Positions 3,288 through 56,475 are shown, counted from the first letter of the stretch. The stretch is 64,000 nucleotides of DNA from an uncultured Rickettsiales bacterium (GCA_964467255.1 CAYXPR010000009.1:15139-79138), one strand, 5' to 3'. Notes: generated by a model from the letters alone, not told the origin. Program-made: numbers and translations.

Positions 3288-3302
3288 TTAACAAAAGGTT
3301 AA
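3288..3302 (-). promoter_or_regulatory. TTAA-N7-TTAA motif (CtrA-box type) upstream of the poly-HTH gene
   Basis: The minus-strand reading is TTAA CCTTTTG TTAA(a). It lies about 30 nt upstream of GTG 3256, or about 63 nt upstream of GTG 3223. Confidence 0.45.
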
Positions 3303-3362
3303 ATAATATAGTGTTTTAAAAACAGTCGGTTAGTGTGTATTTCTGCGCCGCAGTTTTATGCC

Positions 3363-3378
3363 TTAACGCCTTTTTAAC
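3363..3378 (+). promoter_or_regulatory. TTAA-N7-TTAAC motif (CtrA-box type) upstream of the M20 amidase gene
   Basis: The plus-strand reading is TTAA CGCCTTT TTAAC, 32 nt before the start at 3411. Confidence 0.45.
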
Positions 3379-3410
3379 GAATTGGCGACATACTGTAAGA
3401 GCATGGATAG

Positions 3411-4856
3411 GTGTGCAAGGAGTTGAATTTGCCAGAAGATTTTAAACTAGCGCCGAAGCCGGATTTTGCCCTCGCGGGCAAACTCATCGGTGCGCTTAAA
3501 AAAGCCCACTGGGATAATGAGCCTGAGCGTAAAGGCATGCATGCCTATGGCTATACCAAAGCCGAGCAGGAGGCGATTGATATTGTGGTGGCTGAGGGCG
3601 TGAAGCTGGGCATGGAAGCGTTTTCGGATTTAGCAGGGAATATGTATCTGCTTTCGCGCGGCACAGGTGACGGTGCGAAAACCGACGTGATTGTGTCGCA
3701 CCTCGACACCGTGGAAAAAGGTGGCGTGCATGATGGGCGTGACGGCGTGGTGGCCGGCATAGCGGTGGTTGCCGGATTTAAGCAAAACGGCATTCCACAT
3801 GAGCATGATATCTGCGTGATGATTGCGCGCTCGGAAGAAAGCGATATTAACGGGCAGGTTTCTATCGGCGCAAAAGCGGCGACGGGCAGCCTGTCGCAGC
3901 AAGCGTTGTCGGGCCTTAATAACCGTAAAACAGGCCGCAGTTTGTGGCTTGAAATGAATGAGCTTGGCATACCGATCAGCACCCTTGCCGGAAGGCTTGA
4001 TGCCAGCCCGACATTATTCCCCACGGGGGATGCGGCCAAAGCCCTGATTGGCTTTTTGGTGGAAGCGCATATTGAACAAGGCAGTTATTGCGCCAAGCAG
4101 GATATTAATATCGGCATCGTGAATGCCATTCGTGGGAACACGCGCTTTCTGGATGCAAAGATTACCGGCGAGGCCGCGCACTCGGGCGCGACGTTTGAAG
4201 AAGACCGCGCTGACGCCAACCGCGCTTATGTGAAGCTGATGCATGCAGCAGAAGAATGGTTTGATGTGCAGCGCAGACATGGCCGCGATGTGGTGTTTAC
4301 GCCCGGTAAAGTAAAATCGAATAATGAGTCGGCGACGACCGTGTCAGACAATATAACCTTCTCATTTGAGATACGCTCGGCCGATGAAAAAGTCTTACAA
4401 GACTTTGCCACGTTCATGAAAACGAAGGCCGAAGAAATCGTGTCGAGTCACCCGAATAATAAACTGAAAATTGAATTGCCGAAGGCCAACATTGCCAAGC
4501 CAGCAGAGATGGACAAAGAAGTGATTGCCCATGCGCAGGCGATTGCGAATGAACTTGGCGTTCGCTCCGGCATCGTGACGAGCGGTGCGGGGCACGACAC
4601 GGTGCAGTTTGCCAACACCGGCACGCCGAGCGTGATGCTGTTCATCAAACAGGATGACCCGATTAGCCACAACCCACGTGAGGCGCGCCGCGAGGATAGT
4701 TTTAAGAACGCCTGCAAAATCATTGCGGGGATGATTATGAACCCGCAGGAAAGAACGCAAGAACCCACGCTGCCGCCGGAGGGCCCGAAAAGCTTCCGCG
4801 AATATATTGCGCAGCAGGGTGCCGTGCCCTATGAACCCGGCCAGTGGAAACGCTAA
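3411..4856 (+). CDS. Zn-dependent M20 amidase of the amidase/hydantoinase/carbamoylase family (allantoate amidohydrolase / N-carbamoyl-amino-acid hydrolase type)
   Basis: 'VSHLDTVEKGGVHDGRDGVVAGIAVV' matches the HLD(S/T)V..GG..DG..GV metal-binding block of this family. 'EAHIEQG' and 'SGAGHD' blocks are also present. There is a ~40-aa Pro/Glu-rich C-terminal extension. Confidence 0.8.
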   Translation: MCKELNLPEDFKLAPKPDFALAGKLIGALKKAHWDNEPERKGMHAYGYTKAEQEAIDIVVAEGVKLGMEAFSDLAGNMYLLSRGTGDGAKTDVIVSHLDTVEKGGVHDGRDGVVAGIAVVAGFKQNGIPHEHDICVMIARSEESDINGQVSIGAKAATGSLSQQALSGLNNRKTGRSLWLEMNELGIPISTLAGRLDASPTLFPTGDAAKALIGFLVEAHIEQGSYCAKQDINIGIVNAIRGNTRFLDAKITGEAAHSGATFEEDRADANRAYVKLMHAAEEWFDVQRRHGRDVVFTPGKVKSNNESATTVSDNITFSFEIRSADEKVLQDFATFMKTKAEEIVSSHPNNKLKIELPKANIAKPAEMDKEVIAHAQAIANELGVRSGIVTSGAGHDTVQFANTGTPSVMLFIKQDDPISHNPREARREDSFKNACKIIAGMIMNPQERTQEPTLPPEGPKSFREYIAQQGAVPYEPGQWKR

Positions 4857-4862
4857 AGTGAA

Positions 4863-8035
<3,173 letters not shown>

Positions 8036-8039
<4 letters not shown>

Positions 8040-9247
8040 TCAGCCTCGGCGGGTGCTGCGGCTTCAGGTGCGGCTTCTGCTGCCGGTGCAGCGGCAGGCG
8101 TTGCAGCAGGTGCATCCATTGGCACCATTTCCGGTATGACCGGTGTGCCCGGGCGTGCGCGCTGCAAACCATTCACCACAATTTTATCACCGGCTTTCAG
8201 CCCTTCGGTGACGATGCGCAAACCATCTGCCATGCCGCCAAGCTTTACTTCACGGTAGGCCACGATGTTGTCATCTCCCACGGCGAGGACGAATTTTTTA
8301 TTCTGGTCAGTGCCCACGGCACGGTCAGTAATCAATATGGCATCGACGTCATTCGCGCTGCCCACTGTGATGCGCGCAAACAGACCCGGCACAAGCGTAC
8401 CATCGGTATTTTCAAACATCGCGCGGGCGCGGATGGTGCCTGTGGCGCTGTCGAGGTGATTGTCGAAGGATTCAATCACGCCCGTGTGCACAGCAGCGCT
8501 TCCACTGCCGAGCTCTAAACGTACCGGAATCGCATCGTCATCCACCACCGCTCTGCGGGTGTAGGTGAGGAAAGTGGTTTCATCCATTTCAAAATCCGCA
8601 TAGATAGGCGAATTCGCCACCACGGTGGTGAGCAGCGGCGCGCCCGTGTTGATTTCAACAAGGTTGCCTGCGGTGATTTCCGCACGGCTGACCATGCCGG
8701 AAATGGGCGCGGTGACTTTGGTGTAAGCGAGATTCAGTTTTGCCACCTGCATGGCGGCCTTCGCACTTTGCAGCGACGCTTTTGCGACGCGCAGCGCATT
8801 CTGGCGGCGCTCATATTCGCGCTGCGGAATCACTTTATTTTGAATCAGTCCTTCGGCGCGTTCCATTTCTTTGGCAGCGAGTGTGTGTTCGGCCTCAGCA
8901 GAAGCCAGCGCACCCGCCGCGCGGTTTACTTCGGCCGTGAACGGGCGCGAGTCAATGGTGAAGAGCAAGTCACCTTTTTTCACCTGCGCACCATTGGTGA
9001 AATGCACGGCCTCGATGATGCCCGAAACTTGCGGGCGTACCTCGGCGCGGTCGACCGCGACCAACCTGCCGGAAAAACTTTTCCACGACTGCACGCGGCG
9101 CGAAATCACCTGCGCCACACTCACCGGCGCGGCACCCATTTGATCCATGCCCTGCGGGGCGGAGCCGAACCAACCCGGCACATAATTAATGGCCGCCAGA
9201 ATGAGCAGCACAAAACCAGCCAGAGTGAGCAACGTGGAGCGCCGCAT
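8036..9247 (-). CDS. RND efflux periplasmic adaptor (membrane fusion protein, AcrA/HlyD family)
   Basis: N-terminal TM anchor, a coiled-coil hairpin region (LRVAKASLQSAKAAMQVAKLNLAYTKVTAPISG) and a beta-barrel region. Translationally coupled to the RND permease. Ala/Pro/Glu-rich C-terminal tail. Confidence 0.9.
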
Positions 9248-9477
9248 AAGAAAAGACCCTTCAGGTGATGGAAAATGAATGCGGACGCAGCATGAAACAA
9301 ATTCGCCGTGTAGTCAATAATGCCAGAATGAAATTGTAAAATTATCTTCCTACAGATAATGCGCATAAATATGGTGTATTAGTATGAGACAAACTACAAT
9401 TAATTGATTTGCACTTTACAAACGAAACTCTGTGCCACATGTTTGCGGTAGGGAGTTTTGTCCTGAAGAGAGCTGGT

Positions 9478-10968
9478 ATGGCCAAAAAAATTCGCAAAAC
9501 GCCTGCTGTCCGGCGCAAGGTTCGTTCCGTACACAATACGGGGTCGGTAGCGATCTACGCGATGGTCATGCTGCTTGCCTTCACCGTGCTGTATTTTGGC
9601 ACCCAGCCCTTAATGAATGACCCAGATACGCCGTGGCACGTGGCGGCAGGTGAATATATCCGAGAAATAGGTAGCGTGCCGATGGCGGACCCATGGTCGT
9701 ATGCCACCACACAGGCGCGCTGGTATAATCTTTCATGGGCATGGGACGTGCTTATCAGCGTGGTGGCGGATGGAGCAGGGCTTGGTGGCCTTTTCATTTT
9801 TAGCTGCCTGTGTGGCGCGGGGGTGATTACATTTTTAGCCTTTGTTTTGCGTGCGCGCATCGGCCAGTTTAATGACGCCATTTTTATGGTGCTGGCTATT
9901 GTGGGCGTGACATACATGGCGCAGTATGGCGCCCGCCCGCAACTGGTAACCGAAGCGATGGCGGTGTTGTGGTTGTGGGGTACGCCGCAATTATTGAAGC
10001 AAAAAAAATGGCAGTATGTTCTTCCGCTCAGCATGGTGGTGTGGGTTAATTTCCACGGCGGCTTTTTGGCGGCTTATGCCATTTTAGGCGCCTATGTTTT
10101 TCAGGCATGGCAGAACAAACAAGGCCAGTATGTAAGGCAGGCCGTGATAACCGGCGCCATCAGTACGCTGGCGCTGTGTGCAAACCCGCTGGGCGTGCAT
10201 GTGTTTCAGGGAACGCTGCGCACACTGATTAGCGACATCACGCCGTATCTTTCCGAATGGGGTCCCATGGTGTTCACGGCATCTACGGGTTTTGATATGG
10301 CGCTGATTGCAATGATTGTGGCGTCGGGCTTTAGAGATAAAACCATTCCCGTAGCGGAAAAGATTTTAGCATTCACATGGATGCTGGCGGCGCTGTTTAC
10401 GGTGCGTCATCTTTTTCTAGCGGTGGTGATGGCGGCGCCATATCTGGTGCGTGCGCTGTCAAAAACACTGCCGCATATTCGTGAGTATCACGTGCCGCGC
10501 CGTTCATATCATGGTGTGGCATGCGTGGCGCTCGTTCTTGGGGTGGTGGTGCTGACCGCCATGCCAGTGCGGGAGGCCATCACCCATAAGTCACGCATTC
10601 TTTCAGAAGACCAAATACCGGTCGGCGCGCTTAATTTTATTCGGGAACATTACCCACGCACGCGCTTTCTGAACGAATTTTTTATTGGCGGCCACATGAT
10701 TTACTATAATCGTGATGTGCATCAAGTTTTCACCGATGGCCGTGCAGGTACAGCTTACAGCGAAAAAGACCTTGCTGATATTATTTTGCTGATGAAGGGT
10801 GAGAAGGTGGATGATATTCTCCGCAAACACGATATTGCCGGAGTTATTTTGCCAAGCTGGCGCAATGCCTATAAGATTCCGCAGCTACACAACCCGCGAT
10901 ACTGGCAGAAAGTGTATGATGATGGTGTGGGCGAGGTGTACATACGCGTTGTGCCACACAGAGAGTAA
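9478..10968 (+). CDS. polytopic inner-membrane protein of unknown function (possibly a GT-C-like glycosyltransferase)
   Basis: ORF 9409..10968 trimmed to ATG 9478 (MAKKIRKT..). At least 10 hydrophobic helices followed by a ~120-aa soluble C-terminus. No catalytic motif recognised, so the function is a guess. Confidence 0.6.
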   Translation: MAKKIRKTPAVRRKVRSVHNTGSVAIYAMVMLLAFTVLYFGTQPLMNDPDTPWHVAAGEYIREIGSVPMADPWSYATTQARWYNLSWAWDVLISVVADGAGLGGLFIFSCLCGAGVITFLAFVLRARIGQFNDAIFMVLAIVGVTYMAQYGARPQLVTEAMAVLWLWGTPQLLKQKKWQYVLPLSMVVWVNFHGGFLAAYAILGAYVFQAWQNKQGQYVRQAVITGAISTLALCANPLGVHVFQGTLRTLISDITPYLSEWGPMVFTASTGFDMALIAMIVASGFRDKTIPVAEKILAFTWMLAALFTVRHLFLAVVMAAPYLVRALSKTLPHIREYHVPRRSYHGVACVALVLGVVVLTAMPVREAITHKSRILSEDQIPVGALNFIREHYPRTRFLNEFFIGGHMIYYNRDVHQVFTDGRAGTAYSEKDLADIILLMKGEKVDDILRKHDIAGVILPSWRNAYKIPQLHNPRYWQKVYDDGVGEVYIRVVPHRE

Positions 10969-10981
10969 AGAGAGGAAAAGT

Positions 10982-11692
10982 ATGAAAGCACTACGAATAC
11001 TTGCACCCGTTGCGGTGCTGATAGTGAGTGGATTTGCTGCACAGGCTGCTACGGGCGTGCTGACAGTGATGGCCGAGGGGCTGACGAACGGAAGCATGAT
11101 CAACGAAAAGCATGCCTACTGCATTCCCAAGGACACACACCCCAGTGTGCCTGCCGGTGAAAATAAAAGCCCTGCGCTGCAATGGAGTAAGGGCCCAAAG
11201 GGGACTGAATCTTACGCCATTATTATGGCAGACAGCCAAGTGCCCACCGATTTTTCGATGGCCAATAAAGAAGGCACTGTAGTTTCCGACCGCATGCCCC
11301 GCCAGATTTTTTTCCACTGGGTGCTGGTGGATATTCCGCCGGATATTCACGAGCTTTCACTGGGTGATTTCAGCCGCGATGGTGAGATTGCACTCTATGG
11401 CCGCCACGGCCTGAACGATTACCCGAAATTCCTTGGTAAAACACTCGATGAAAAAACGATTGCGGAATACAGTAATTACGATGGCCCGTGCCCACCATGG
11501 AACGATGAAAAAATGCACAATTATCATTTCCGCGTCTATGCGCTGGATGTGCCCACACTCGAGAATTTAAAAGATCCGTTTACCGGCGCCGATGCCATGA
11601 AGGCGATTGAAGGCCACGTGCTGGCAGAGGGTGAGCTGGTTGGGCACTATACCCTCAACACCAAAATTCTGTTCGAGGAGCAGAAGCGGTAG
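10982..11692 (+). CDS. YbhB/YbcL-family phosphatidylethanolamine-binding (PEBP/RKIP-like) periplasmic protein
   Basis: 'FFHWVLVDIP' and 'HNYHFRVYALD' are the bacterial PEBP signature blocks. Signal peptide MKALRILAPVAVLIVSGFAAQA. ORF 10799..11692 trimmed to ATG 10982. Confidence 0.85.
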   Translation: MKALRILAPVAVLIVSGFAAQAATGVLTVMAEGLTNGSMINEKHAYCIPKDTHPSVPAGENKSPALQWSKGPKGTESYAIIMADSQVPTDFSMANKEGTVVSDRMPRQIFFHWVLVDIPPDIHELSLGDFSRDGEIALYGRHGLNDYPKFLGKTLDEKTIAEYSNYDGPCPPWNDEKMHNYHFRVYALDVPTLENLKDPFTGADAMKAIEGHVLAEGELVGHYTLNTKILFEEQKR

Positions 11693-11700
11693 CGCGCGTT

Positions 11701-12042: not shown

Positions 12043-12308
12043 ACCCTGCCCGTCATTTTTTTGCTATGAAAAGCAGAATGTTAGAGGTTGGACCCGCATT
12101 GTATAACCCTGATGATAGGTTTGTGGATAAAAAGGGGGCAATTCAACTATAACATTGATTTATAAGGGAAACACCTACTTGTTGTCGGCGAGGGATATTT
12201 GTGCAAGGCGGAAACTGCCACCACAAGATGTAAAATACTCGTGGCAAGTTTAATAAAATCCAATATAATAATGTACATCAGTTCAGAAGACTTAAGGGGG
12301 AGAGGTCT

Positions 12309-12548
12309 ATGAAGAAAGCAAAGCTTGTATTGCCGCTCGTTACGATGCTGGTTTTTTCCGCCTTGCTTTCCGCGTGTAGCGGCCCCTCGAACAAAGCATT
12401 TTCACCACAAGCGGTGATGTCGTCGCAGGATATGATGCGCGGTTATGCGCAATGGCTGCGCGAGAACCAATCGCGCCAAGGCATGGTGATGTCGCCCCCT
12501 GGCGCAAAGCAGCAGGTTCGTCTGCCTGTGCGCATTGCGGAAATCTAA
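12309..12548 (+). CDS. small lipoprotein
   Basis: MKKAKLVLPLVTMLVFSALLSAC has a lipobox (LLSAC). GGGGAGAGG Shine-Dalgarno 5 nt upstream of the ATG. Confidence 0.6.
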   Translation: MKKAKLVLPLVTMLVFSALLSACSGPSNKAFSPQAVMSSQDMMRGYAQWLRENQSRQGMVMSPPGAKQQVRLPVRIAEI

Positions 12549-13375: not shown

Positions 13376-13377
13376 CC

Positions 13378-24485: not shown

Positions 24486-24593
24486 TTAATCCGCCTTTTT
24501 CTGCTGCACTTCGTGCGGGTGCTTTAAATCACCTTTCACGCCACACGCGGTGGGGAGCGCCAGCACAAGCAGAATGATAAACAGACGCAGCAT
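24486..24593 (-). CDS. 35-aa lipoprotein (LptM/YifL-like micro-lipoprotein), absent from the ORF track
   Basis: Hand translation of the minus strand gives [35 protein letters not shown]. It has a signal peptide plus a Cys lipobox. The ATG overlaps the argH stop (TAATG), and the stop lies 1 nt before the lysA GTG, so it exactly fills the argH-lysA gap. Confidence 0.55.
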   Translation of the reverse strand: MLRLFIILLVLALPTACGVKGDLKHPHEVQQKKAD

Positions 24594-40446: not shown

Positions 40447-40609
40447 CGGAAAAATCCTCCCTCAAGCAAGAAAGCTAAAATGCAGCTAGAATACTGTTTT
40501 TTATTCGTTTCTTGCGGTTATCAGCCTACGCGATTCATGGGCGCGTGTAAAGCGTAAAGCATGGTGCAGTGCGATAATTTAGGGGGTTATTAACCTATTC
40601 AGGGCACGC

Positions 40610-41383
40610 CTATTCACGCCATGCACCAGCGCCCAACTCTTTTAGGGCTTTTGCTGTGGCCTCAACCATCTGTGCGCTGCGTTCAAAGGCTTGGGCGGCT
40701 TTAAGTGCATCGCCGGCCTCTTTGCGGTCATACTTGCCCATGGCAATATTGTATTCTACCACCCACATGGGGCCGGATAAATCACCATCATCCCTCCGCT
40801 CGATGGCGTCTTTTAGCTTTACGGCGCGCGAAACAATGTCGGATTTTGGCATGGGGATTGTATCGGCATGATAGAGGTTAATCGCATCAAGTAAATCATG
40901 TCGCATGGAAACCATCTCCAGCCGCTCCCGCTCATTCCGGTGGCTGAGTTGGATGAAATTCTCAAACGCAGGATTTTTCAGCTCATCGCGCACGCGAAGG
41001 AAAAGCGCGTCCAGCTGGTCATCGAGGCAATTTGCGCGGATGTCGTTAAAATAATCGACATGTGAGCGCCGGAGCGAAAGCACGGCTTTGCCCGGCTGAA
41101 GGGGGTCAGTAAAACTGTAGGAAAAACTTTCCTCCGGCAGCAGGGCGGACATGGATTTCAGCAGTTCGCGCACCGCATCTTTTTGTTCGGCGGTTTCGTA
41201 AGAGACGGCGCATTCTATATCGGGGTTTGTCGCGCGTAACATGCGCTGTGTGCGAACATTCATGTTGCCGAACTCTTGCAGTTCTTCCCACGTGGCGCGC
41301 GTTAGCCCGTGGAAAATCACCTGCTGGTGCCCCTGAATCTGTTCTTCTGTTAATGCAGACATGGACGAACGCTTTAGCGCCAT
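40610..41383 (-). CDS. hypothetical soluble protein (orphan, own promoter)
   Basis: ORF 40610..41389 with ATG 41383 preceded by GGAGGGG. No motif recognised. A TTAA-N7-TTAAC motif lies 38 nt upstream. Confidence 0.5.
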   Translation of the reverse strand: MALKRSSMSALTEEQIQGHQQVIFHGLTRATWEELQEFGNMNVRTQRMLRATNPDIECAVSYETAEQKDAVRELLKSMSALLPEESFSYSFTDPLQPGKAVLSLRRSHVDYFNDIRANCLDDQLDALFLRVRDELKNPAFENFIQLSHRNERERLEMVSMRHDLLDAINLYHADTIPMPKSDIVSRAVKLKDAIERRDDGDLSGPMWVVEYNIAMGKYDRKEAGDALKAAQAFERSAQMVEATAKALKELGAGAWRE

Positions 41384-41421
41384 ACACACACCCCTCCATC
41401 ATCCAGCATATGGGCAAGATA

Positions 41422-41437
41422 GTTAAAAAAACGTTAA
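41422..41437 (-). promoter_or_regulatory. TTAA-N7-TTAAC motif (CtrA-box type) upstream of the 257-aa orphan
   Basis: The minus-strand reading is TTAA CGTTTTT TTAAC. It sits in the 71-nt gap between the acyl-CoA ligase stop (41455) and ATG 41383. Confidence 0.45.
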
Positions 41438-44194: not shown

Positions 44195-44196
44195 GC

Positions 44197-45066: not shown

Positions 45067-45070
45067 TCTA

Positions 45071-45086
45071 TTAAGCCTTCTTTAAC
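45071..45086 (+). promoter_or_regulatory. TTAA-N7-TTAAC motif (CtrA-box type) upstream of the acidic orphan
   Basis: The plus-strand reading is TTAA GCCTTCT TTAAC. It begins 5 nt after the folD stop and ends 48 nt before ATG 45135. Confidence 0.45.
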
Positions 45087-45134
45087 CTTTTCGTGGCAGT
45101 CTATACGCTGGAGCATTGTAACCAGCGGAATTCT

Positions 45135-46424
45135 ATGTCACTGAAGGAATTTTCAGCACAGGCGACCTTATATAAAGACGACACTGTTGCGATTGAGCAG
45201 ACGCTGCTGCTGAACGAGCGCGACGACGGCAAGTTGCATGCGCAGCGCATCACCCGCGTGAATGGCGTTGAGGCGTGGAATAACCAAGTGCTGTTCTCGG
45301 TGTTTGAGGCGGGCAAAAGCATGGACGAAGCCATGACCGACATTCAACAGCGCTGGGACGAAGTTGAGCGTGGCGAGCTGCAATTCATGTGCAAAAATGC
45401 AGTGCTATATGGCCGTGTGAAACAGATTGAACCCAGCGCCGATTATATGGCAACGCTGCTAAAAGGCACACTGATTAGTTATTACACCATGCCTGATATG
45501 ATGGCGGTGGAAAACCCCGAATATGACAGCAACGACCGCTATGCACTGGGCGTGCAGTTCCGTAGCTTCCGCCACTCTACAAATATATACCGCAACGATA
45601 ATGGAGATGGTGATGGCGCGGCGCAATTACCCATCACCGACCGGTATGAAAACGCCATGCTGCGCATTGATGGCGCGGCAGAGAATATCATGGAGTTTAT
45701 GAACGCCGATATTTGGGGCGAGTCGATTCATGCGCCCGGCACCACACATGAAGGTTCGTCCTATGATTATGAACTACAGGGCGGCGAAAAAAGAGACATG
45801 TTTGAGGAATACAAAGACCCCGGCGAGCCAGACGTGTCTCGCGTGGTGCCGCTGGAAGACGATGATATTGAAGTGGGGGATGATTTTTTCTCCGGCGGCG
45901 AAGAGGAGTATGATGAAGACAGGGGTAATGAATATGATCTTCCGGAAGTGAATAGCTGGGAACAAGAAGCACAGCGCGAAAATTCGGGCGGTGGTTATGA
46001 AGTGGGTGAACAAACACCTATGATGCGGCTGGTGCCTGAGGTGAGTGACCGCATGTTTGAATTGGTGGAGCAACTGACCAAAGCATGGGTAATGATTGCA
46101 CAGCACCAGCAAAAGGGACATTCCCTTGGCGATGAGCCGCGAGCGGCGATAGTAGAGGCACTCAATGAAGCCATCCGCGAGACGAGGGAGGCAGCTACAA
46201 AGTTTGGCGAAGCGTTGGCAGAGGAAGGAAAAGGCGAATTTGCTCCGCGTCTGAGCCAGCTGGTGGAAGAAGGTTGGCGCAACGAAGGGGGTGTAGAAGT
46301 AAAGGGCCTGCTGAAAGTAGCGGAACAGATGCGCGATATGGTGAAAACCAAACGTGCAGATACCTATATCGCGCAGGGCCGCGAAGGCCCGACCCCCGGC
46401 ACCGGTGATTTGCCGAAGTTTTAA
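45135..46424 (+). CDS. highly acidic hypothetical protein (orphan)
   Basis: ORF 45093..46424. ATG 45135 (MSLKEF..) is preferred because GTG 45093 would lie only 6 nt from the putative promoter motif. The central D/E/G-rich low-complexity tract is 'EDDDIEVGDDFFSGGEEEYDEDRGNEYD'. No motif recognised. Confidence 0.5.
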   Translation: MSLKEFSAQATLYKDDTVAIEQTLLLNERDDGKLHAQRITRVNGVEAWNNQVLFSVFEAGKSMDEAMTDIQQRWDEVERGELQFMCKNAVLYGRVKQIEPSADYMATLLKGTLISYYTMPDMMAVENPEYDSNDRYALGVQFRSFRHSTNIYRNDNGDGDGAAQLPITDRYENAMLRIDGAAENIMEFMNADIWGESIHAPGTTHEGSSYDYELQGGEKRDMFEEYKDPGEPDVSRVVPLEDDDIEVGDDFFSGGEEEYDEDRGNEYDLPEVNSWEQEAQRENSGGGYEVGEQTPMMRLVPEVSDRMFELVEQLTKAWVMIAQHQQKGHSLGDEPRAAIVEALNEAIRETREAATKFGEALAEEGKGEFAPRLSQLVEEGWRNEGGVEVKGLLKVAEQMRDMVKTKRADTYIAQGREGPTPGTGDLPKF

Positions 46425-46496
46425 AACTTTTCCTTGCCGCCTGAAGCGTTATTGCGCATAGTCAGGCCGTTTTAAAGAACCCGATATAAAAACCAC

Positions 46497-47381: not shown

Positions 47382-47461
47382 GCGGTATTTAGAGGCTCGA
47401 CATTTCTATGCACAGTGGGTATTCTCGCAGGCGTGTGGGTTTAAGCCTTTGAATTGGTATC

Positions 47462-47899: not shown

Positions 47900-47916
47900 C
47901 CTTGTAAGGGCAGCAC

Positions 47917-48651: not shown

Positions 48652-48652
48652 G

Positions 48653-49513
48653 ATGAAAAAACGTTCTGCAAAAAAAGCGCCGGCACCAAAAAAACTGATC
48701 GTAGCGTTGGTGCAGCCTGAAAGCGGCAACGACATGAAGAAAAATATTGCGGCGGCAGAGCGCTATGTGCGACAGGCGGCCGCGAAAGGCGCGCAATTGA
48801 TATTGCTGCCGGAAAATGTGGCGCTGATGTGCGGCAACCAAAAAGAGTTGGTGGCGAACGCGCACGAAGAAAAAAACCACCCGGCACTGAAAGCATTTCG
48901 CCAATTAACAAAAGAACTCGGCGTATGGCTGGTGATTGGTTCACTGGGCGTTTACAGCCCCGCCGTGCGCAAATTCTATAACCGCTCTTTCGTGCTGAAC
49001 AATAAAGGCGAGGTGATGGCGCGCTACGACAAAATCCATTTGTTTGATGCGACGCTACCTGGCGGCGAGCGGTATGGTGAATCCGCACGTTACAAACATG
49101 GCGCTCGTGCGGTGGTGGCATACACACCGTGGGGCGGCATCGGGCTTTCGGTATGCTATGACGTGCGCTTTCCGCAGTTATACCGCAGCCTTGCCAAAGC
49201 TGGTGCGGTGATGCTGGCCGTGCCTGCTGCCTTCACGCAGACCACGGGGCAGGCGCACTGGCATATTTTGCTGCGTGCCCGCGCGATTGAAAATGGTTGT
49301 TTTGTATTAGCGCCCGGCATGACGGGGCAGCACCCCGGTGGCCGAAAAACCTTCGGGCACTCGCTGGCGGTGGACCCTTGGGGCCGCGTGCTGGCGGATG
49401 CAAAAGCGAAGAAGGGTATTGTGCTCGCAACGCTTGATTTAAATGAAGTCGGCAAGGTGCGGCAGATGCTGCCCAGCCTGACACATGACCGGCATTTTTT
49501 GCTGCCAGAATAA
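48653..49513 (+). CDS. carbon-nitrogen hydrolase family protein (nitrilase/omega-amidase-like)
   Basis: The catalytic triad contexts are 'LILLPE', 'YDKIHLFD' and 'GLSVCYDVRFPQ'. Start set at ATG 48653 behind AGGAAG. Confidence 0.9.
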   Translation: MKKRSAKKAPAPKKLIVALVQPESGNDMKKNIAAAERYVRQAAAKGAQLILLPENVALMCGNQKELVANAHEEKNHPALKAFRQLTKELGVWLVIGSLGVYSPAVRKFYNRSFVLNNKGEVMARYDKIHLFDATLPGGERYGESARYKHGARAVVAYTPWGGIGLSVCYDVRFPQLYRSLAKAGAVMLAVPAAFTQTTGQAHWHILLRARAIENGCFVLAPGMTGQHPGGRKTFGHSLAVDPWGRVLADAKAKKGIVLATLDLNEVGKVRQMLPSLTHDRHFLLPE

Positions 49514-49520
49514 TTAAAAA

Positions 49521-50210
49521 CTAAACGTCAGAGAAACCGGAATCATCCGGATGGGTGGGTTTTTTTGATAGCAGTGCGGACGGCGCTTCCGGCTTGGCGG
49601 GCTTGGCGCCAAAACCAAAACGACCATCTTTCTGCTTGTCGCGTTTTACATTCACGCGGATGGCTTTTTCAATGTCGCCGCGGATGGCTTCGAGCGAAGG
49701 TGGCAGCACCGTGTCTTTGATGGAATGGGCAAAACCCAAGCGTGAAATAGCATCCATCGGTGCACCAAGGCCATGCGTGAATTTCATTTTTGCAGCAGTG
49801 AAATCGGCACCCACTAAACTCGTCATGTAGAGCTTCGTGTGATATAAATCCGCGCGCGAAAAATCGGCATAGTCGGCGCAGGCATGGTCGAACTGCGTGT
49901 CAGACATCACACAATCCGCGAACACAGTGTGGCGTGCGGTGACACCAGAAAAAATGACGTTCGATACATCAATGCCGCTGAAATCGAGCCCGCTGATATC
50001 CGACCCCGTAAGGTTGATGTAAGGCAGGCCGAAAGCGGCGCTGCTCTCTTTAGAAAAACTGCCATATTTGCGGAAAAGGGCGCGTAATTCAGGATTCGCC
50101 ATGTCGGCTTCGGTAAGGTCTACGCTGGTGAGGTCAATCATGCCGCCAGGGCCGAAATTACTCATGCGCAGGAGAACCTGCTTTGTGGAAAGGTGCGGCC
50201 GGCGGGGCAT
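49521..50210 (-). CDS. pentapeptide-repeat protein
   Basis: Tandem A(D/N)LxX-type repeats: 'GSDISGLDFSGIDVSNVIFSGV' and 'ADFSRADLYHTKLYMTSLVGADFTAAKM'. ORF trimmed to ATG 50210 (MPRRPHL..). Confidence 0.75.
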   Translation of the reverse strand: MPRRPHLSTKQVLLRMSNFGPGGMIDLTSVDLTEADMANPELRALFRKYGSFSKESSAAFGLPYINLTGSDISGLDFSGIDVSNVIFSGVTARHTVFADCVMSDTQFDHACADYADFSRADLYHTKLYMTSLVGADFTAAKMKFTHGLGAPMDAISRLGFAHSIKDTVLPPSLEAIRGDIEKAIRVNVKRDKQKDGRFGFGAKPAKPEAPSALLSKKPTHPDDSGFSDV

Positions 50211-50415
50211 GGTCAAACCTTCATCTCCCAAAAAACACCGCTGTTTCAATGGGCAACGGCTAAGGCTTACTATACCGCGACTTGCCGAAATTGAAAAGAA
50301 CAAGTTCTTTACACCCCGCGAGCGTAGCGGCACAATAGGTGCGACTTTCCGCTATTCCCATGCTAAAATGGGGGTATAAGTTAAGTCCGTGATAGGCAAA
50401 ACGAGCAGGTAGCGA

Positions 50416-52131
50416 ATGGAGCCAATTAACCTACCACCAGTGCAGGCCAACCTGCCGCCGATTAATAGTAATTCCGTGCCCAATGTGCGGCCGAACCCTG
50501 CGCTTGCCAGCTTGCCACCTGATGCGCTGGTGAACGCTACGGTGGTGCGCGCCGATAGCACCAGCGCCGTGCTGCGCACCCCCGCCGGTGAAGTGGCTGT
50601 GCGCACCGAAACGCCATTAAATCCCGGCAGCAGCATTGTGATAAAAATAGTGGTGAACACACTGGCTTCGCAAATCCGCCCGCCGGAAGGGCAGCCGCTA
50701 GCAAATAACCTTGTCCCATCAACCACCTTGTCGCAATTTCAGGCGCAGATTTTAACTGTGGATGGTCGTGCGCCCGTTGGCGTAGGCACCGACAGAGCAT
50801 TGGTAACAGTGACGCAGCCAAACCCACAAACAGGTACGCAGAACAGCACAGCAACAGGCACGCGTGCGGCAGTAGAACAAGGGGCAACGACCCTGAATAT
50901 TTCAAGCGGCACGGTGCTGCGCGCTGTGGTGACGGCGCCTGCGGCCACCGCGCAGCAATACCTGCCACCACCGCAGGTGACGTCGTCTGTACCATTCCTT
51001 GCACATGCGGGGCTGCAGGCCTATCAGGCCGCCACACCGAACACAAACCCAAACGCAGGTCTTGCCAACACGAGCGCAAGCAGCGTGCTGAAAGTGTCGG
51101 ATGTGCTTTCGGTGCATGTGCTGGCGGTGAGGGTCACGCCCGATGCGGCATCTACTAATCCGCAGGGGAGTTTTACCTCGGGCTTTGGTGCGCAATCGCA
51201 AAACCCGCAGCAGCAAGCGGCTACGGCGGCAAAACTTTCTGCGCAGCCCAGCTTTACCGGCACGGTGATTGGCACCGAACGCTCGGGAGAAACGGTGCTT
51301 TCCACCCCGCTCGGCACGATTAAATTGATGCTCGGTGGAGGGCTGCTTTCCAAAGGCACACAGCTGACGCTGGAAGTATTGAACATGGAAGCGCGCGCAG
51401 CGAGCACCGCACCGCTGCCGACCACGCTTGAAGAAGCGAAGGGTTTGCTGGGCAGAGGTGCAACGTCATTGTCGGAAATTGCGGGGCTGCTAGTGCAATC
51501 GCATGGCGCGGAAGGCAAGGAAGCCTTGCAGCAAGCATTGCCAAGTACACAACTGCCGCAGCAATTTGCCTCGCGTCTGTTGTGGTTTTTGGGCGGCGTA
51601 TTTTCCGGCAACGCGGCGGCGTTTGTGGGCCCTGAAGTGCAGCGCATGCTGGAGCAAAGCGGCAAAGGCGAATTGATTGGCCGTTTGCAAAAAGAATTCG
51701 GTCGCCTGAAACAAGCAGGGCAGGAAGGGCTCGGCAATGGCTGGACGGGCATGCTCTTTCCGGTGATGGATGGCGAAAAAATTGATCATGGCGCGATGTT
51801 CACCCGCCGCTTCCGTGAGGAAAATGCTGACGGAAAAACCGAAGACGGCACACGTTTTGTGGTGGATATGCGCATGTCGCAAATGGGGCCGGTGCAGCTG
51901 GATGGTTTATATCGTACGGACGGCGAGGCGAAGAAGTTTGATTTATTCGTGCGCACGAATGCACCGTTGAGCGATGAAGTGCGGACAGAAATTTTTGAAG
52001 TGTTCTCGGCCACCACGGAAGCGACTGGCCTGAATGGTTCGCTGCAATTTCAGGTGATGCGCAAATTTCCGGTGAACCCGCTGGAAATTGAAATGCCAAC
52101 CAGCGCGTCTGATGGTAACATCATCGCATGA
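50416..52131 (+). CDS. FliK-like (flagellar hook-length-control-like) protein
   Basis: 571 aa, Pro/Gln/Thr/Ala-rich. Repeated 'L.A.V......VL.T..G.....T..PL..G..L.L.V' modules, and a C-terminal segment 'TRFVVDMRMSQMGPVQLDGLYRTDGEAKKFDLFVRTN' resembling the Flg_hook domain. Assigned from memory of the family pattern only. Confidence 0.45.
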   Translation: MEPINLPPVQANLPPINSNSVPNVRPNPALASLPPDALVNATVVRADSTSAVLRTPAGEVAVRTETPLNPGSSIVIKIVVNTLASQIRPPEGQPLANNLVPSTTLSQFQAQILTVDGRAPVGVGTDRALVTVTQPNPQTGTQNSTATGTRAAVEQGATTLNISSGTVLRAVVTAPAATAQQYLPPPQVTSSVPFLAHAGLQAYQAATPNTNPNAGLANTSASSVLKVSDVLSVHVLAVRVTPDAASTNPQGSFTSGFGAQSQNPQQQAATAAKLSAQPSFTGTVIGTERSGETVLSTPLGTIKLMLGGGLLSKGTQLTLEVLNMEARAASTAPLPTTLEEAKGLLGRGATSLSEIAGLLVQSHGAEGKEALQQALPSTQLPQQFASRLLWFLGGVFSGNAAAFVGPEVQRMLEQSGKGELIGRLQKEFGRLKQAGQEGLGNGWTGMLFPVMDGEKIDHGAMFTRRFREENADGKTEDGTRFVVDMRMSQMGPVQLDGLYRTDGEAKKFDLFVRTNAPLSDEVRTEIFEVFSATTEATGLNGSLQFQVMRKFPVNPLEIEMPTSASDGNIIA

Positions 52132-52526
52132 AACACACCCCCGATGATGCCGTTAAACGCCGTGCACTGTTAAACCCAGTGCCCGCGCCCGGCAGACCCT
52201 ATGATTATGTGGTGGAGTTACGCCAGCCGCTCTTTGCCCGCACGAAAAACCCTATCACGCTGGTGGTGCGCTATGTGCCGGAAAAATTCATTCTCGCACC
52301 AGAGCGCCTGAACGCGTACCTGAAACAGAGTGAAAAAATCCCTCACGATTCCATTGAGGTGCTGGCCGACCGGATGCTAAGCGACCTGCTCAACGAACTG
52401 ATTCCGTTCTGGATAGAGATTCTGCTGGAGCAGCAGGAAGGCGAAGTGCTGCACCGCGTGCTGCGGGAAGAACGCCAGCCGGATTGGGATAATCCCTCGC
52501 TTTTAGCGCGCCTAGCGCCGCTGTAA
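52128..52526 (+). CDS. QueF-like T-fold protein lacking the catalytic cysteine
   Basis: The ATG overlaps the upstream stop (ATGA). 'ITLVVRYVPEKFILAPERLNAYL' and 'IEVLADRMLSDLLNELIPFWIEI' align by eye with B. subtilis QueF '[23 protein letters not shown]' and '[23 protein letters not shown]'. The protein has no Cys and lacks the E-S-K-S motif. Confidence 0.4.
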   Translation: MKHTPDDAVKRRALLNPVPAPGRPYDYVVELRQPLFARTKNPITLVVRYVPEKFILAPERLNAYLKQSEKIPHDSIEVLADRMLSDLLNELIPFWIEILLEQQEGEVLHRVLREERQPDWDNPSLLARLAPL

Positions 52527-52763
52527 AGCGTACAACCATCTTGTTAAGTACCCATGAAAAACAGGGAATTTTTCATTTCTCTGCCTAAAAATTATGCACA
52601 ACGGCAAACCTTCCCCTGTCAAACCCGCAGAAATGCGTGAAAGGCAAAGCGAGACAATAAAAATATTTCATTAAAAAACAAAGAGATAGATATATCTGCC
52701 CCATTTTGTGGCAAACCGTAGAAACCCGCGACGTTTTCGGCAAAATCTCCGAGGGGGACGGAG

Positions 52764-52798
52764 TTATCCACAGGCTTATCCCCGCTTTTCGTGGATAA
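52764..52798. promoter_or_regulatory. cluster of three DnaA-box-like 9-mers
   Basis: TTATCCACA (52764-52772, perfect consensus), TTATCCCCG (52776-52784, 2 mismatches) and inverted CGTGGATAA (52790-52798, equal to TTATCCACG, 1 mismatch). Further 1-mismatch boxes are TTATGCACA (52592-52600) and TTATCCGCA (52962-52970). An AT-rich tract lies at about 52655-52700. Confidence 0.4.
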
Positions 52799-52918
52799 CA
52801 GTTGGTGGCGCGCCTGAAATAAGGTAAAAATAGCGGGATTCCAAGGGGATGAACTAATCTCCCTTTGGAAGCAGGTGATAAAAAAGCAACAAACTGTTCC
52901 GAATAAAAAACACTATAG

Positions 52919-54775
52919 GTGAAAGCGATGGACAGTGCAGGGCATATGAGCGGTGCCGACATTATCCGCAAAAAAGTAGAGACACTGCCGGATGCGCCCG
53001 GCGTATATCGCATGCTGGGTGAAAAAGGCGAAGTGCTGTATGTGGGCAAAGCCGCCAATTTAAAAAAACGCGTGGCGAACTACACGCAACTGATGCGCCT
53101 AACCACCCGCCTGCAGCGCATGGTGACGCTGACGAAGGATATGGAATTTATCCTGACCCGCAGCGAGGCCGAAGCGCTTCTGCTGGAAGCCAATCTGATT
53201 AAGCAATATCAGCCGCGCTACAATATTTTGCTGAAGGACGATAAATCCTTCCCCTACATTATGCTGGATGAAACGCACGCATTTCCGCGCATCGCCAAAC
53301 ATCGCGGCGAGCGCAAAAAAGGTGCGACTTATTTTGGCCCGTATGCGAATGCGGGGGATGTAAACCGCGCCATGGCGGCGATTCAAAAAATGTTTTTACT
53401 GCGCCCATGCGCGGACACGGTTTTTTCAGCCCGCACCCGCCCATGCATGGAATATCAGATTAAGCGGTGCAGCGCGCCATGCGTGAAGCGCATCGGTGAA
53501 AAAGATTATGCCGCGTTGGTGCAGCAGGCGAAAGATTTTCTCTCAGGAAAAAATCAGGGCCTCAAAGAAAAGCTCCAGCAGGAAATGGAAACAGCGAGCG
53601 CCAAAATGCAATATGAAAAAGCCGCCAGCTTGCGCGACCGCATCGGCGCGCTGCAGCACGTGCAGGCCAACCAATATGTGAATGCGGCGACCGTGAGCGA
53701 TGCCGATGTGATTGGCCTTGCGGCAGATGCTCCACGCGTGTGCGTGCAGGTGCTGTTTATCCGCGGCGGGCAGACGATGGGCAGCCGCGCATTTTTCCCC
53801 ACGCGCACCGACGACATGACACCGCCTGAAATTATGGAAGCGTTCCTCGGGCGGTTTTATCAGCTGAGTCCGCCGCCGCCACTCGTGCTGCTATCGCACC
53901 GCCCCGAAAATAGCGAAGTGATGGAGGCGGCATTACGCCTGTTGGCAGAACGCAAGGTAACGCTCGAAGTGCCGCAGCGCAGCGAGCGCGCACAGCTGGT
54001 GGCGGGCGCCGTAGCTAATGCCGAAGAAGCCGCCCGCCGCAAAATTCAGGAAGACAGTAAGGAAAAAGAACTACTCGAAGGCGTGGCGAATCTGTTTGAA
54101 CTGGAGGCGCCGCCGCAGCGCATCGAGGTGTATGACAACAGCCATATTTCCGGCAAGCATGCGGTGGGCGGCATGATTGTAGCGACACCGGAAGGATTTA
54201 ACAAACAGGCTTACCGCCGCTTCACGGTGGAGTCGACCTCGCTGGCGGGCGGGGATGATTACGGCATGCTGCGCGAGGTGCTGCAGCGCCGCTTCTCACG
54301 CCTGAAACGCGAAGACCCCGACCGCACCAGCGCATGGCCGGACTTGGTGCTGATTGATGGCGGCGCGGGGCATTTGAAAGTGGCCACCGAAGTGCTGACG
54401 GAACTCGGTGTGAATGATGTGCCCTATGCCTGCATCGCCAAGGGCGTAGACCGCAATGCGGGGCGTGAAGTGTTCCATGTGGCAGGAAAAGAACCATTCC
54501 AATTGCCGGTGCATGATGCCACGCTGTATTACCTGCAGCGCCTGCGCGACGAAGCACACCGTTATGCGATTTTCTCGCACCGTGCGAAACGCTCGCGCGC
54601 CATCCGCAGCAGCGAACTGGATACGCTCACGGGCGTGGGTGCCACGCGCAAAAAAGCGCTGCTCACGCATTTTGGCTCAGTGCAGGCTTTGCGAAATGCC
54701 AGCGTGGAAGAGATTGGGCGCGTGCCCGGCATCAGTGTGAAACTCGCCGAATCCATTCACCAACAACTGCGCTAA
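52919..54775 (+). CDS. uvrC: excinuclease ABC subunit C
   Basis: GIY-YIG 'PGVYRMLGEKGEVLYVGKAANLKKRV', a UVR domain 'YEKAASLRDRIGAL', and C-terminal HhH 'LTGVGATRKKALLTHFGS'. The start may be ATG 52928 or 52946. Confidence 0.95.
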   Translation: MKAMDSAGHMSGADIIRKKVETLPDAPGVYRMLGEKGEVLYVGKAANLKKRVANYTQLMRLTTRLQRMVTLTKDMEFILTRSEAEALLLEANLIKQYQPRYNILLKDDKSFPYIMLDETHAFPRIAKHRGERKKGATYFGPYANAGDVNRAMAAIQKMFLLRPCADTVFSARTRPCMEYQIKRCSAPCVKRIGEKDYAALVQQAKDFLSGKNQGLKEKLQQEMETASAKMQYEKAASLRDRIGALQHVQANQYVNAATVSDADVIGLAADAPRVCVQVLFIRGGQTMGSRAFFPTRTDDMTPPEIMEAFLGRFYQLSPPPPLVLLSHRPENSEVMEAALRLLAERKVTLEVPQRSERAQLVAGAVANAEEAARRKIQEDSKEKELLEGVANLFELEAPPQRIEVYDNSHISGKHAVGGMIVATPEGFNKQAYRRFTVESTSLAGGDDYGMLREVLQRRFSRLKREDPDRTSAWPDLVLIDGGAGHLKVATEVLTELGVNDVPYACIAKGVDRNAGREVFHVAGKEPFQLPVHDATLYYLQRLRDEAHRYAIFSHRAKRSRAIRSSELDTLTGVGATRKKALLTHFGSVQALRNASVEEIGRVPGISVKLAESIHQQLR

Positions 54776-54861
54776 AGCGGCGTACCGCCTTAAACGGCGC
54801 TTGACGATGCGCCACTTTCACGACATTTTAGAAAGCAATCACCAAACCCAGCGCCGCCCGT

Positions 54862-55404
54862 ATGATATATTCACTGCCGAACATTTTGACCTATGTACGT
54901 ATCGCGCTGATTCCGGTGGTGGTGGCGGCATTTTATATGGATGGCCGCACGAGCCATCTCGTCGCTTCCGGCCTTTTTTTAGTGGCAAGTATTACCGATT
55001 ATTTAGATGGCTGGCTCGCCCGCTTGTGGCAGCAGGAATCGTCCCTCGGGCGCTTTTTGGACCCGATTGCGGACAAACTGCTCGTCGCCGCGGCGTTGAT
55101 GATGCTGGTGGATTTTGAACGCGCGGACGTGATTCCCGCTACTTTGATTTTGTGCCGCGAAATTATGGTCTCTGGCCTGCGTGAATTCTTGGCAGAAATT
55201 AAGGTGAGCGTGCCGGTGAGCCGCCTTGCCAAAGTGAAAACTGGCGTGCAGATGACGGCTATATTCTTGTTGCTGTTGGGTGCGAAAGGTAGCGGGTTTG
55301 TGATTGTAGAAACGCTGGGCAGCATCGCGCTGTGGATTGCCGCCGTGCTGACGGTGGCCACGGGCTATGCGTATTTAAAGGCCGGCGTCGCCCACATGAA
55401 ATAG
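54862..55404 (+). CDS. pgsA: CDP-diacylglycerol--glycerol-3-phosphate 3-phosphatidyltransferase
   Basis: CDP-alcohol phosphatidyltransferase motif 'DYLDGWLARLWQQESSLGRFLDPIADK'. 180 aa, follows uvrC as in many proteobacteria. Confidence 0.9.
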   Translation: MIYSLPNILTYVRIALIPVVVAAFYMDGRTSHLVASGLFLVASITDYLDGWLARLWQQESSLGRFLDPIADKLLVAAALMMLVDFERADVIPATLILCREIMVSGLREFLAEIKVSVPVSRLAKVKTGVQMTAIFLLLLGAKGSGFVIVETLGSIALWIAAVLTVATGYAYLKAGVAHMK

Positions 55405-55407
55405 CGC

Positions 55408-56424
55408 TTAGCGCTTCCAGATATCCTCGGCACCGCTTCCGAGCCCGCCCCGCAGGTCGGTGCGCGGCGTATGTTTTTTAGGTTCACGCGCCGGTTTTTC
55501 TTCTTTTGCCAAGGCCAGCGGCGGACTTCCCTTATGGTGCCACGGCGGCTGTGTACTAAGTTCTTTCGCGACCTCTGGTGTGACGAACACCTCGCGCTTG
55601 GGGAGCCACTCTGCAATCATTGCATCGAGCGATTCGATGCCGCTGTTTTCCACAGGGCGCGTGTAGGCGGTCATGACGGCACGTTCACGGCGCATTTTGA
55701 CGCGGTCAATCTGGTCATTCAGCTGGCTTGTATAATCCCTGAAATTTTCTAAGACGGCACCCGGCGTGGTTGTTTCTTTAAAGCCAATATGTGGCAAAAC
55801 ATCATTGCGGTGCAGCGCCTGAAACAGGCACATGAGATTGCCAGCGGCAAGCTTCGCACCACTGGCATCAAAACCAAACATTGCTTCGCGGGAATCGCGG
55901 TCTTCGGTGATCAGCACGCTGCCACCCTGCCCGGCATTTTGCTGCGCCGCTTTTCGGGTGAGCCCGTCGACATCTTTACTTTTGCGGAGCGCATCAAATT
56001 CAACAAAGCTGCGCGTGCGGTGCCCTCTGTCACTCAGCTCCTCCAGTTTTGAAAGTAACGCGACGCCTTCTTCGCTCTGCATCACGCGCACATTCGGCAA
56101 GCCCCCCGCAAGGGCGATGGCACCTAAATTGCGGGCGATTTGCCCTTGGTGGTAAATCACCGAGCGTTTTTCATCTAAGAACATGCGGTCAACCACATTA
56201 CCGGTTAGCGGGTTATGACCACTGGTTTCATAAATGACACTGGCGGGTAGGCCAATTTGTAAAAACCCCTGACGTGCTGCATCCACGATAGGGTCGATAT
56301 AGAGTTTTTTGGTGTTGCCATCTGCCAGCAGCGCAGGGCGCACCGGTGTGAACAAATGTTTGAGCGCGCAGCTGTCGATAACGGCCAGCGGGGCGTCTTG
56401 AAATAATGTCGGCGAAATAGCCAT
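55408..56424 (-). CDS. hypothetical soluble protein (orphan), with a possible PIN-like N-terminal domain
   Basis: 338 aa. GAGGAG Shine-Dalgarno. 'LAVIDSCAL' and 'VLITEDRD' are reminiscent of PIN-domain acidic motifs (weak). Basic/Pro-rich C-terminus. A TTAA-N7-TTAAC motif lies 35 nt upstream. Confidence 0.55.
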   Translation of the reverse strand: MAISPTLFQDAPLAVIDSCALKHLFTPVRPALLADGNTKKLYIDPIVDAARQGFLQIGLPASVIYETSGHNPLTGNVVDRMFLDEKRSVIYHQGQIARNLGAIALAGGLPNVRVMQSEEGVALLSKLEELSDRGHRTRSFVEFDALRKSKDVDGLTRKAAQQNAGQGGSVLITEDRDSREAMFGFDASGAKLAAGNLMCLFQALHRNDVLPHIGFKETTTPGAVLENFRDYTSQLNDQIDRVKMRRERAVMTAYTRPVENSGIESLDAMIAEWLPKREVFVTPEVAKELSTQPPWHHKGSPPLALAKEEKPAREPKKHTPRTDLRGGLGSGAEDIWKR

Positions 56425-56459
56425 AAACTCCTCTAGCCTATCAGTATAGGCGATAGAAG

Positions 56460-56475
56460 GTTAACAAAGCCTTAA
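56460..56475 (-). promoter_or_regulatory. TTAA-N7-TTAAC motif (CtrA-box type) upstream of the 338-aa orphan
   Basis: The minus-strand reading is TTAA GGCTTTG TTAAC. It lies in the 67-nt gap between the ilvE stop (56492) and ATG 56424. Confidence 0.45.

Follow-up and report, generated by a model that had tools for sequence, protein, structure and literature searches.

The DNA considered here, a stretch of 64 kb from an uncultured bacterium filed under Rickettsiales (GCA_964467255.1, CAYXPR010000009.1:15139-79138; the whole stretch is called the window), is compact housekeeping DNA that encodes an RND efflux pump, dTDP-rhamnose synthesis, TonB/ExbBD, lysA, argH and a beta-oxidation operon, as well as trxB, folD, comF, nit, uvrC, pgsA, ilvE, an OmpR-family response regulator, purL, purQ, purS and purC. 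Between these genes it contains five copies of the direct repeat TTAANNNNNNNTTAA (TTAA-N7-TTAA, termed box in the following), all of them intergenic, and four of them stand in front of uncharacterised genes, as had been claimed in an earlier reading of the same DNA (the original prediction). These boxes are probably binding sites of an orthologue of the response regulator CtrA in class-II, activator-dependent promoters.

Judging from its genes, the host is an uncultured, phylogenetically isolated alphaproteobacterium with a GC content of 54%. This assignment is based on the nearest genomes, on a class I lysyl-tRNA synthetase encoded in the window, and on a gene for the F-ATPase zeta-inhibitor (PF07345), a family typical of Alphaproteobacteria, which is found in the extension just past the window. 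The nearest genome in a collection of 185,579 species is a metagenome-assembled genome (MAG) from Lake Mendota, named 'Rickettsiales bacterium' (JBIKVZ010000001.1, 789 kb), with a 97% identical Nit protein. The next-best Nit matches are about 55% identical and come mostly from Rhodospirillaceae, Emcibacter, Azospirillum, Thalassospira and unnamed Alphaproteobacteria, and the 'Rickettsiales' label of the MAG lineage may be loose. This MAG is referred to as the relative. From its own contig come the loci L004 and L006, and it is also represented by L088, a Logan contig that carries the MAG's protein as well. The loci L005, L086 and L087 belong to two additional metagenomic strains, and a locus of the host genome itself, L093, reaches 9.8 kb past the right end of the window. 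The boxes and the hexamers that follow them are arranged as follows.

3288..3302, minus strand: box 1, sense TTAACCTTTTGTTAA(a), as site 1 TTAACCTTTTGTTAAa; points to the gene of a multi-helix-turn-helix (multi-HTH) protein; identical in L088:9955-9969.
3271..3276, minus strand: candidate -10 hexamer TATGCT, 11 nucleotides (nt) past box 1; conserved in L088; putative -10 role.
3363..3378, plus strand: box 2, TTAACGCCTTTTTAAC; points to the M20 peptidase gene; TTAACATCTTTTTAA in L088, with unchanged half-sites and two different spacer bases.
3389..3394, plus strand: candidate -10 hexamer CATACT, 11 nt past box 2; CATAAT at this place in the relative, with both flanks diverged.
41423..41437, minus strand: box 3, sense TTAACGTTTTTTTAA(c), as site 3 TTAACGTTTTTTTAAC; TTAACGATTTTTTAA in the relative.
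41405..41410, minus strand: candidate -10 hexamer TATGCT, 12 nt past box 3; conserved in L004/L006.
45071..45086, plus strand: box 4, TTAAGCCTTCTTTAAC; TTAAGCCTTCCTTAA in L004/L006 and L005.
45097..45107, plus strand: candidate -10 region of site 4; CAGTCT at N11, conserved; TATACG at N16, not conserved in the relative.
56461..56475, minus strand: box 5, sense TTAAGGCTTTGTTAA(c), as site 5 TTAAGGCTTTGTTAAC; identical in L006, L086 and L087.
56443..56448, minus strand: candidate -10 hexamer TATACT, 12 nt past box 5; invariant across four genomes.
L093:6091-6105: box 6, TTAAGGCTTTTTTAAC; intergenic, 16 nt past the stop of a propionyl-CoA carboxylase-type gene; fronts a 383-residue protein of no family; TAGGCT at N11.
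L093:8693-8707: box 7, TTAACTAAATCTTAA; intergenic, 80 nt before a 203-residue protein of no family.

A scan of both strands of the window finds exactly five matches, starting at 3288, 3363, 41423, 45071 and 56461, and no further perfect copy on either strand, in full agreement with the original prediction. Dinucleotide-preserving shuffles of the whole window give 0.64 copies on average and 3 at most, where the original estimate had been well below one chance copy in 64 kb. As the intergenic DNA, which amounts to about 3.3 kb or 5% of the window and holds all five boxes, is richer in AT than the coding DNA (35-47% GC versus 54% overall), the intergenic segments were also shuffled on their own. 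In this case 0.22 copies are expected, none of 5000 shuffles reaches five, and the Poisson probability is about 3e-6. When the spacer length is varied from N0 to N15, N7 gives five matches and every other length 0-2, so that N7 alone is enriched. The motif excess is thus real and statistically strong. Four of the five boxes extend to TTAAC when read in sense orientation, and boxes 3, 4 and 5 begin 17, 4 and 16 nt past the stop codons of the acyl-CoA ligase gene, folD and ilvE, respectively; both features had been noted before.

Boxes with one mismatch exist at 24524, 40579, 52543, 54790 and 63940, and in none of them is a -10-like hexamer found at the distance of 11 or 12 nt. The copy at 40579-40594, TTAGGGGGTTATTAAC, lies 16 nt past the stop of the gene termed orphan 3 below and 133 nt 5' of a thiolase gene; at the corresponding position of the relative (L004:5304) there is likewise a box with a single mismatch. 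A cluster of sites at a replication origin can be ruled out, as the boxes are dispersed and the cumulative GC skew climbs almost monotonically, with small dips and no sustained reversal. Rfam detects no RNA family in the window.

The arrangement of the surrounding DNA would fit a promoter. In an alignment of six sites, comprising the five of the window and box 6, the only conserved columns are TTAA, one T of the spacer, the second TTAA that is mostly followed by C, and A..CT 11-12 nt further on. The hexamers at this last position (yAnnCT) are, in the order of the sites, TATGCT, CATACT, TATGCT, CAGTCT, TATACT and TAGGCT. With the usual 6-8 nt from a -10 element to the transcription start site (TSS), this distance places the 5' T of the box near -39 relative to the predicted TSS. 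In the TSS map of Caulobacter, the 5' nucleotide of the full CtrA motif is at -38 to -40 in most promoters, including ctrA P2, fliQ, fliF, divK and ftsQ. Neither a canonical sigma-70 -35/-10 pair nor an intrinsic terminator is predicted at the box sites, and the flanks of the sites are unrelated beyond the box and the -10-like hexamer, which means that the sites are not copies of a repeat. At box 6 the hexamer ends 6 nt before the called ATG, and an mRNA that starts there may be leaderless. Site 4 also contains TGGCAG-N7-CGC (45094-45108), a sigma-54-like GG-N10-GC of which GG and GC are conserved in the relative; the overlapping TATACG is not conserved there (TGTAGG in L006).

The spacers have been described as rich in G/C first and then in T, and this pattern recurs in a matrix that was built from 31 experimentally defined CtrA sites of Caulobacter, in sense orientation only. 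The five spacers of the window score +17.4 bits in sense and -15.8 bits in antisense orientation, versus -8.6 +/- 6.0 bits for random spacers of intergenic composition (P < 5e-5). Both sets share C/G at positions 5-6 and G/T before the second TTAA, with a centre that is poor in A and rich in T. The G/C-then-T-rich spacer is thus a property of genuine CtrA sites, and its polarity with respect to transcription is the same in both.

All five boxes are kept at orthologous, syntenic positions in the relative. All 40 half-site bases are identical there (L004/L006 for sites 3-5, L088 for sites 1 and 2), at synonymous substitution rates (dS) of 0.2-1.5, and the five substitutions that did occur within boxes are all in the spacer. 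In the divergent region shared by sites 1 and 2, the conserved islands are box 2, the hexamer 11 nt on, the ribosome-binding site, and a longer block with box 1 and its hexamer, while the DNA between these islands has diverged. An A/T-rich block 5' of box 1 (TGTTTTTAAA..ACTATATTAT, window 3303-3362) is also kept in the relative, and the DNA that separates it from box 2 is diverged; it might serve as an UP-element or as another binding site.

The genes behind the boxes, with their comparison to the relative by nonsynonymous (dN) and synonymous substitution rates, are listed here together with two genes next to site 5.

254..3223, minus strand: multi-HTH (XRE-type) protein of about 989 residues; weak HTH_31/HTH_3 matches; likely start GTG 3223, preceded by a Shine-Dalgarno sequence, in an open reading frame (ORF) that is open to 3256; 84% identity.
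3429..4856, plus strand: M20-family peptidase/amidohydrolase; Pfam Peptidase_M20, 2.3e-18; likely start TTG 3429 after the Shine-Dalgarno sequence AAGGAG.
40610..41383, minus strand: orphan 3, 257 residues, soluble and acidic, no known family; 68% identity, dN 0.21, dN/dS 0.20.
45135..46424, plus strand: orphan 4, 429 residues, very acidic (isoelectric point 4.4), no known family; 67-68% identity (L004/L006) and 77% to L005, dN 0.22, dN/dS 0.14.
55408..56424, minus strand: orphan 5, 338 residues, soluble, no known family; 86% identity, dN 0.078, dN/dS 0.10.
57469-58164, plus strand: OmpR-family response regulator without an adjacent histidine kinase; adjoins site 5; 97% conserved.
58168-58809, plus strand: no-family protein of 213 residues directly after the response regulator; only 85% identical to the relative.

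For two of these genes the start codons originally given, GTG 3256 for the multi-HTH gene and GTG 3411 for the M20 gene, are probably to be replaced by the codons listed, which follow Shine-Dalgarno sequences. As both likely starts lie further downstream, the distances from box to start would be somewhat longer than first stated. For an insertion of the orphan genes between core operons, as first proposed, there is no support: they are syntenic in the relative, and neither cassette ends nor shared flanks were found.

Compared with the neighbouring housekeeping proteins, which are 93-99% identical to those of the relative (dN 0.006-0.047), the substitution rates indicate that orphans 3-5 are real genes under purifying selection that are among the fastest-evolving of the region, and the 84% identity of the multi-HTH protein points the same way. 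The dS values of the three orphans are the highest in the region, 0.81-1.56 versus 0.16-0.69 for most neighbours, which points to a weaker constraint on codons, or to alleles that are older or recombined. Homologues are scarce, with only four for orphan 4 and three for orphan 5 among 5.8e9 proteins, and only about 20 relatives of the multi-HTH protein among 1.84e9 representative proteins. The orphans match nothing in Pfam, NCBIfam, PHROG or PADLOC scans, and they are hydrophilic and lack signal peptides. Pairwise BLASTP reveals no paralogy among the box-fronted proteins. AlphaFold2 models from alignments of 3-4 sequences reach a mean confidence (predicted local distance difference test) of 34 for orphan 5 and 42 for orphan 4, which is too poor for use. 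In the relative, the multi-HTH gene is split into two ORFs (730 and 271 residues; L088:10001-13005), as is the gene of orphan 3 (157 and 103 residues; L004:5332-6129), each of which is a single ORF in the window; frameshifts, pseudogenisation or assembly errors could be the reason.

The boxes in L093, 2.1-4.9 kb past window position 64000, continue this trend, as both fronted proteins are soluble and without Pfam family. Among 65 genes, a box precedes 6 of the 18 that belong to no family, versus 1 of the 47 that have one (Fisher P = 0.0013). The C-terminal 25 residues of the seven box-fronted proteins have a polar or disorder-prone fraction of 0.72, compared with 0.55 in 51 other proteins (Mann-Whitney P = 0.001, a post hoc comparison); the C-terminal net charge does not differ (P = 0.36).

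Distant homologues of the multi-HTH protein, 27-31% identical, are encoded in three further loci. L090 (31% identity) has a perfect box (L090:2825-2839) in the shared divergent intergenic region, which with N11-TATATA aims at the divergent gene of the glycoamylase family. L092 has its sole two TTAACAT half-sites in 10.7 kb (2885 and 2955) upstream of the homologue and in sense orientation, and L091 (L091:1437-8964) has no CtrA-type element upstream. The elements in front of these distant homologues are suggestive only in their support of the CtrA assignment. In L091, the homologue is located between ankyrin-repeat proteins and flgE, which has a clear sigma-54 promoter (TGGCAT-N5-TTGCA). Metagenome scans for still more distant homologues of the multi-HTH protein yield no relatives. 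The window itself, which is otherwise compact, contains two long gaps, 12043-12544 (502 nt) and 52527-52918 (392 nt), in which no gene is modelled and no Rfam match is found. An unassigned minus-strand ORF (52585-53058) overlaps the latter, and small ORFs of 79 and 112 residues are called in the former in the relative.

How would such promoters work? The regulator would be a CtrA orthologue, a response regulator of the OmpR family. Its phosphorylated dimer would bind both TTAA half-sites, whose distance of 11 bp corresponds to one helical turn, and the bound site would cover about -39 to -25, in place of a -35 hexamer. Bound in this position, CtrA would bring RNA polymerase to the weak -10 element (yAnnCT) that follows after 11-12 nt, and each downstream gene would receive a pulse of transcription that is tied to the CtrA phosphorelay, i.e. 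to the cell cycle or to a life-stage switch. As there is no terminator between the boxes and the genes of acyl-CoA ligase, folD, ilvE and the carboxylase, read-through from the upstream gene probably reaches the orphans as well, and the regulated pulse would add to it. [quoted passage not shown] The host, the conservation, the spacers and the geometry predicted from the putative -10 elements all agree with the element type that had originally been proposed, a CtrA-box-type promoter element, which is thereby supported. From the same observations we infer the TSS positions, the presence of CtrA in the genome, its binding to the boxes, and the activation of transcription.

Several observations weigh against CtrA as the regulator. 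Neither ctrA, cckA, chpT nor sciP was recovered for the lineage, none of ctrA, cckA and chpT is in the window, and the only response regulator of the window, at 57469-58164, is not CtrA, as it scores 129 bits on a CtrA model with a cut-off of 350. The classical CtrA regulon of flagella, chemotaxis, pili and division includes none of the target genes, and no such genes are present in the window or its extensions. PmrA of Gammaproteobacteria, too, binds direct TTAA repeats whose period is 11 bp. The -10 element of site 4 is poorer than those of the other sites, and box 7 is outside the spacer pattern. At sites 4 and 5 the whole promoter block is 93-97% identical in the relative, and the footprint is not specific for the half-sites; as the compared genomes are close, entire promoter blocks are conserved beyond the half-sites. 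A further point is the density of boxes. In 1.38 Mb of loci from 79 other, mostly alphaproteobacterial genomes there are nine perfect boxes, eight of them outside ORFs, which corresponds to 0.42 per 64 kb overall and 0.36 in a GC-matched subset. With five boxes per 64 kb, or seven per 74 kb, the density here is about 14 times that of the GC-matched loci. The genome of Caulobacter has a size of about 4 Mb, and its 52 full-motif TSSs likewise amount to a density far below that of the window. This leaves some probability for a regulator that is specific to the lineage and has a similar site.

Which regulator other than CtrA might this be? A different protein of the OmpR family, either lineage-specific or the kinase-less one encoded at 57469-58164, could bind the boxes and control a private regulon of fast-evolving orphans that resembles the PmrA regulon of Legionella and Coxiella, which we consider rather unlikely. 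It is true that OmpR-family proteins generally bind direct repeats about 10-11 bp apart, that the enterobacterial PmrA box YTTAAK-N5-YTTAAK includes TTAA-N7-TTAA, and that a regulator of this type without an adjacent kinase adjoins site 5; the 14-fold density and the preference for no-family genes would also suit such a regulator. However, the spacer and TTAAC preferences fit Caulobacter CtrA sites in an orientation-specific way, the half-sites are not of the PmrA type, and no alphaproteobacterial regulator except CtrA is known for a TTAA-N7-TTAA site. CenR, the closest candidate type for the protein at 57469-58164, uses TGA-N8-TGA, and with its high conservation this protein looks like a housekeeping regulator of the OmpR/CenR type. 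Moreover, the box-fronted proteins are not conspicuous in their C-terminal charge.

In case of an alternative sigma factor, the TTAA repeats would be incidental, and the sites would be RpoH-like (a T-rich -35 CTT(T/G) with a -10 CTATnCT) or, at site 4, sigma-54-like. Such a reading, to which we give very little credit, can refer to CTTT/CTTC in the spacers about 17 nt 5' of (C)TATRCT, and at site 4 to the GG-N10-GC that is conserved in the relative where TATACG is not. But the invariant columns are two TTAA tetramers at exactly N7 without a -35 of the CTTG type, the enrichment is limited to N7, and the sigma-54-like match occurs at one site only and would be separated from the box by 9 nt, unlike an arrangement of enhancer type. 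That the boxes arose by chance in AT-rich intergenic DNA, or are copies of a dispersed repeat or of the end of a mobile cassette, is extremely improbable. The low intergenic GC content and the conserved one-mismatch box just past the stop of orphan 3 could be quoted in its favour, but the intergenic-only null and the unrelated flanks effectively refute it, the boxes are conserved at orthologous positions, and no paired ends surround orphans 4 or 5.

If the boxes are indeed CtrA sites, they make the CtrA regulon accessible from sequence in an uncultured lineage with almost no sequenced relatives. They would single out a coherent set of fast-evolving genes that resist annotation by other means, as regulated together with the cell cycle or with a switch between life stages, and thereby steer functional work on the orphans. 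They would also show how a conserved master regulator acquires lineage-specific targets, and would reveal no new regulatory mechanism. A further-reaching possibility, which is unlikely at present, is that in this freshwater lineage the CtrA-type box has come to drive a regulon of unusual size, made up of lineage-specific, fast-evolving soluble proteins with polar, disordered tails. This would be a stage-specific set for interaction with host or prey, or an arms-race-like set, as an alphaproteobacterial counterpart of the PmrA effector regulon of Legionella and Coxiella. It would extrapolate to about one box per 10-13 kb, and if true, the box would be a genome-wide marker for such proteins in uncultured relatives.

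How does this arrangement compare with known systems? In Legionella and Coxiella, the PmrA repeat is at a fixed distance 5' of the -10 element of many dispersed, fast-evolving genes of unknown function. The PmrA-dependent promoters of Dot/Icm effectors in these two genera were reportedly described by Zusman et al. in 2007, and by analogy this regulon may be seen as a striking functional parallel to the box-fronted genes. Like the boxes, the enterobacterial PmrA box (pbgP) is a tandem TTAA-containing repeat with an 11-bp period. Unlike here, the hosts of PmrA are gammaproteobacterial and the half-sites are CTTAAT/cTTAATatT (enterobacterial CTTAAT/CCTAAG), in contrast to TTAAC or TTAAG. Dot/Icm or other type IV secretion genes were not seen in the 64 kb and its extensions. 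A PmrA-type regulon of type IV effectors does not fit the alphaproteobacterial host, the TTAAC/TTAAG half-sites, and a C-terminal charge that is not elevated. The pho-box promoters of PhoB are also similar in that the -35 element gives way to a direct repeat of 11-bp period, which ends about 10-12 bp 5' of the -10 element (class II, with a dimer of the OmpR family), but their half-site is CTGTCAT and the regulator is a different one.

Much closer are the CtrA boxes themselves. In the Rickettsiales Wolbachia and Ehrlichia, such boxes are predicted or used, with TTAA-N7-TTAAC within promoter regions as the search consensus (PMC4426382). The consensus is the same here and the host carries a Rickettsiales label, but its genes are of a free-living type (RND efflux, TonB/ExbBD, beta-oxidation, rhamnose synthesis), and with 54% GC, chance copies of the box are to be expected much more rarely than in the AT-rich genomes of endosymbionts. 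With the CtrA promoters of Caulobacter, the sites of the window have in common the half-sites, the N7 spacing, the TTAAC preference, the A-poor and T-rich sense spacer, the single box per promoter, and, as predicted here from the -10-like hexamer, a box 5' end near -38 to -40 that replaces the -35 element. They differ in that the window shows no promoters with TTAACCAT/TTAACAT half-sites, that the targets are lineage-specific, fast-evolving soluble proteins and an M20 peptidase, and that the box density is much higher. The boxes are therefore best regarded as a credible further case, in a new lineage, of a control system that is well known, and not as a new kind of system; what is less ordinary is their high local density and their preference for fast-evolving, lineage-specific soluble proteins.

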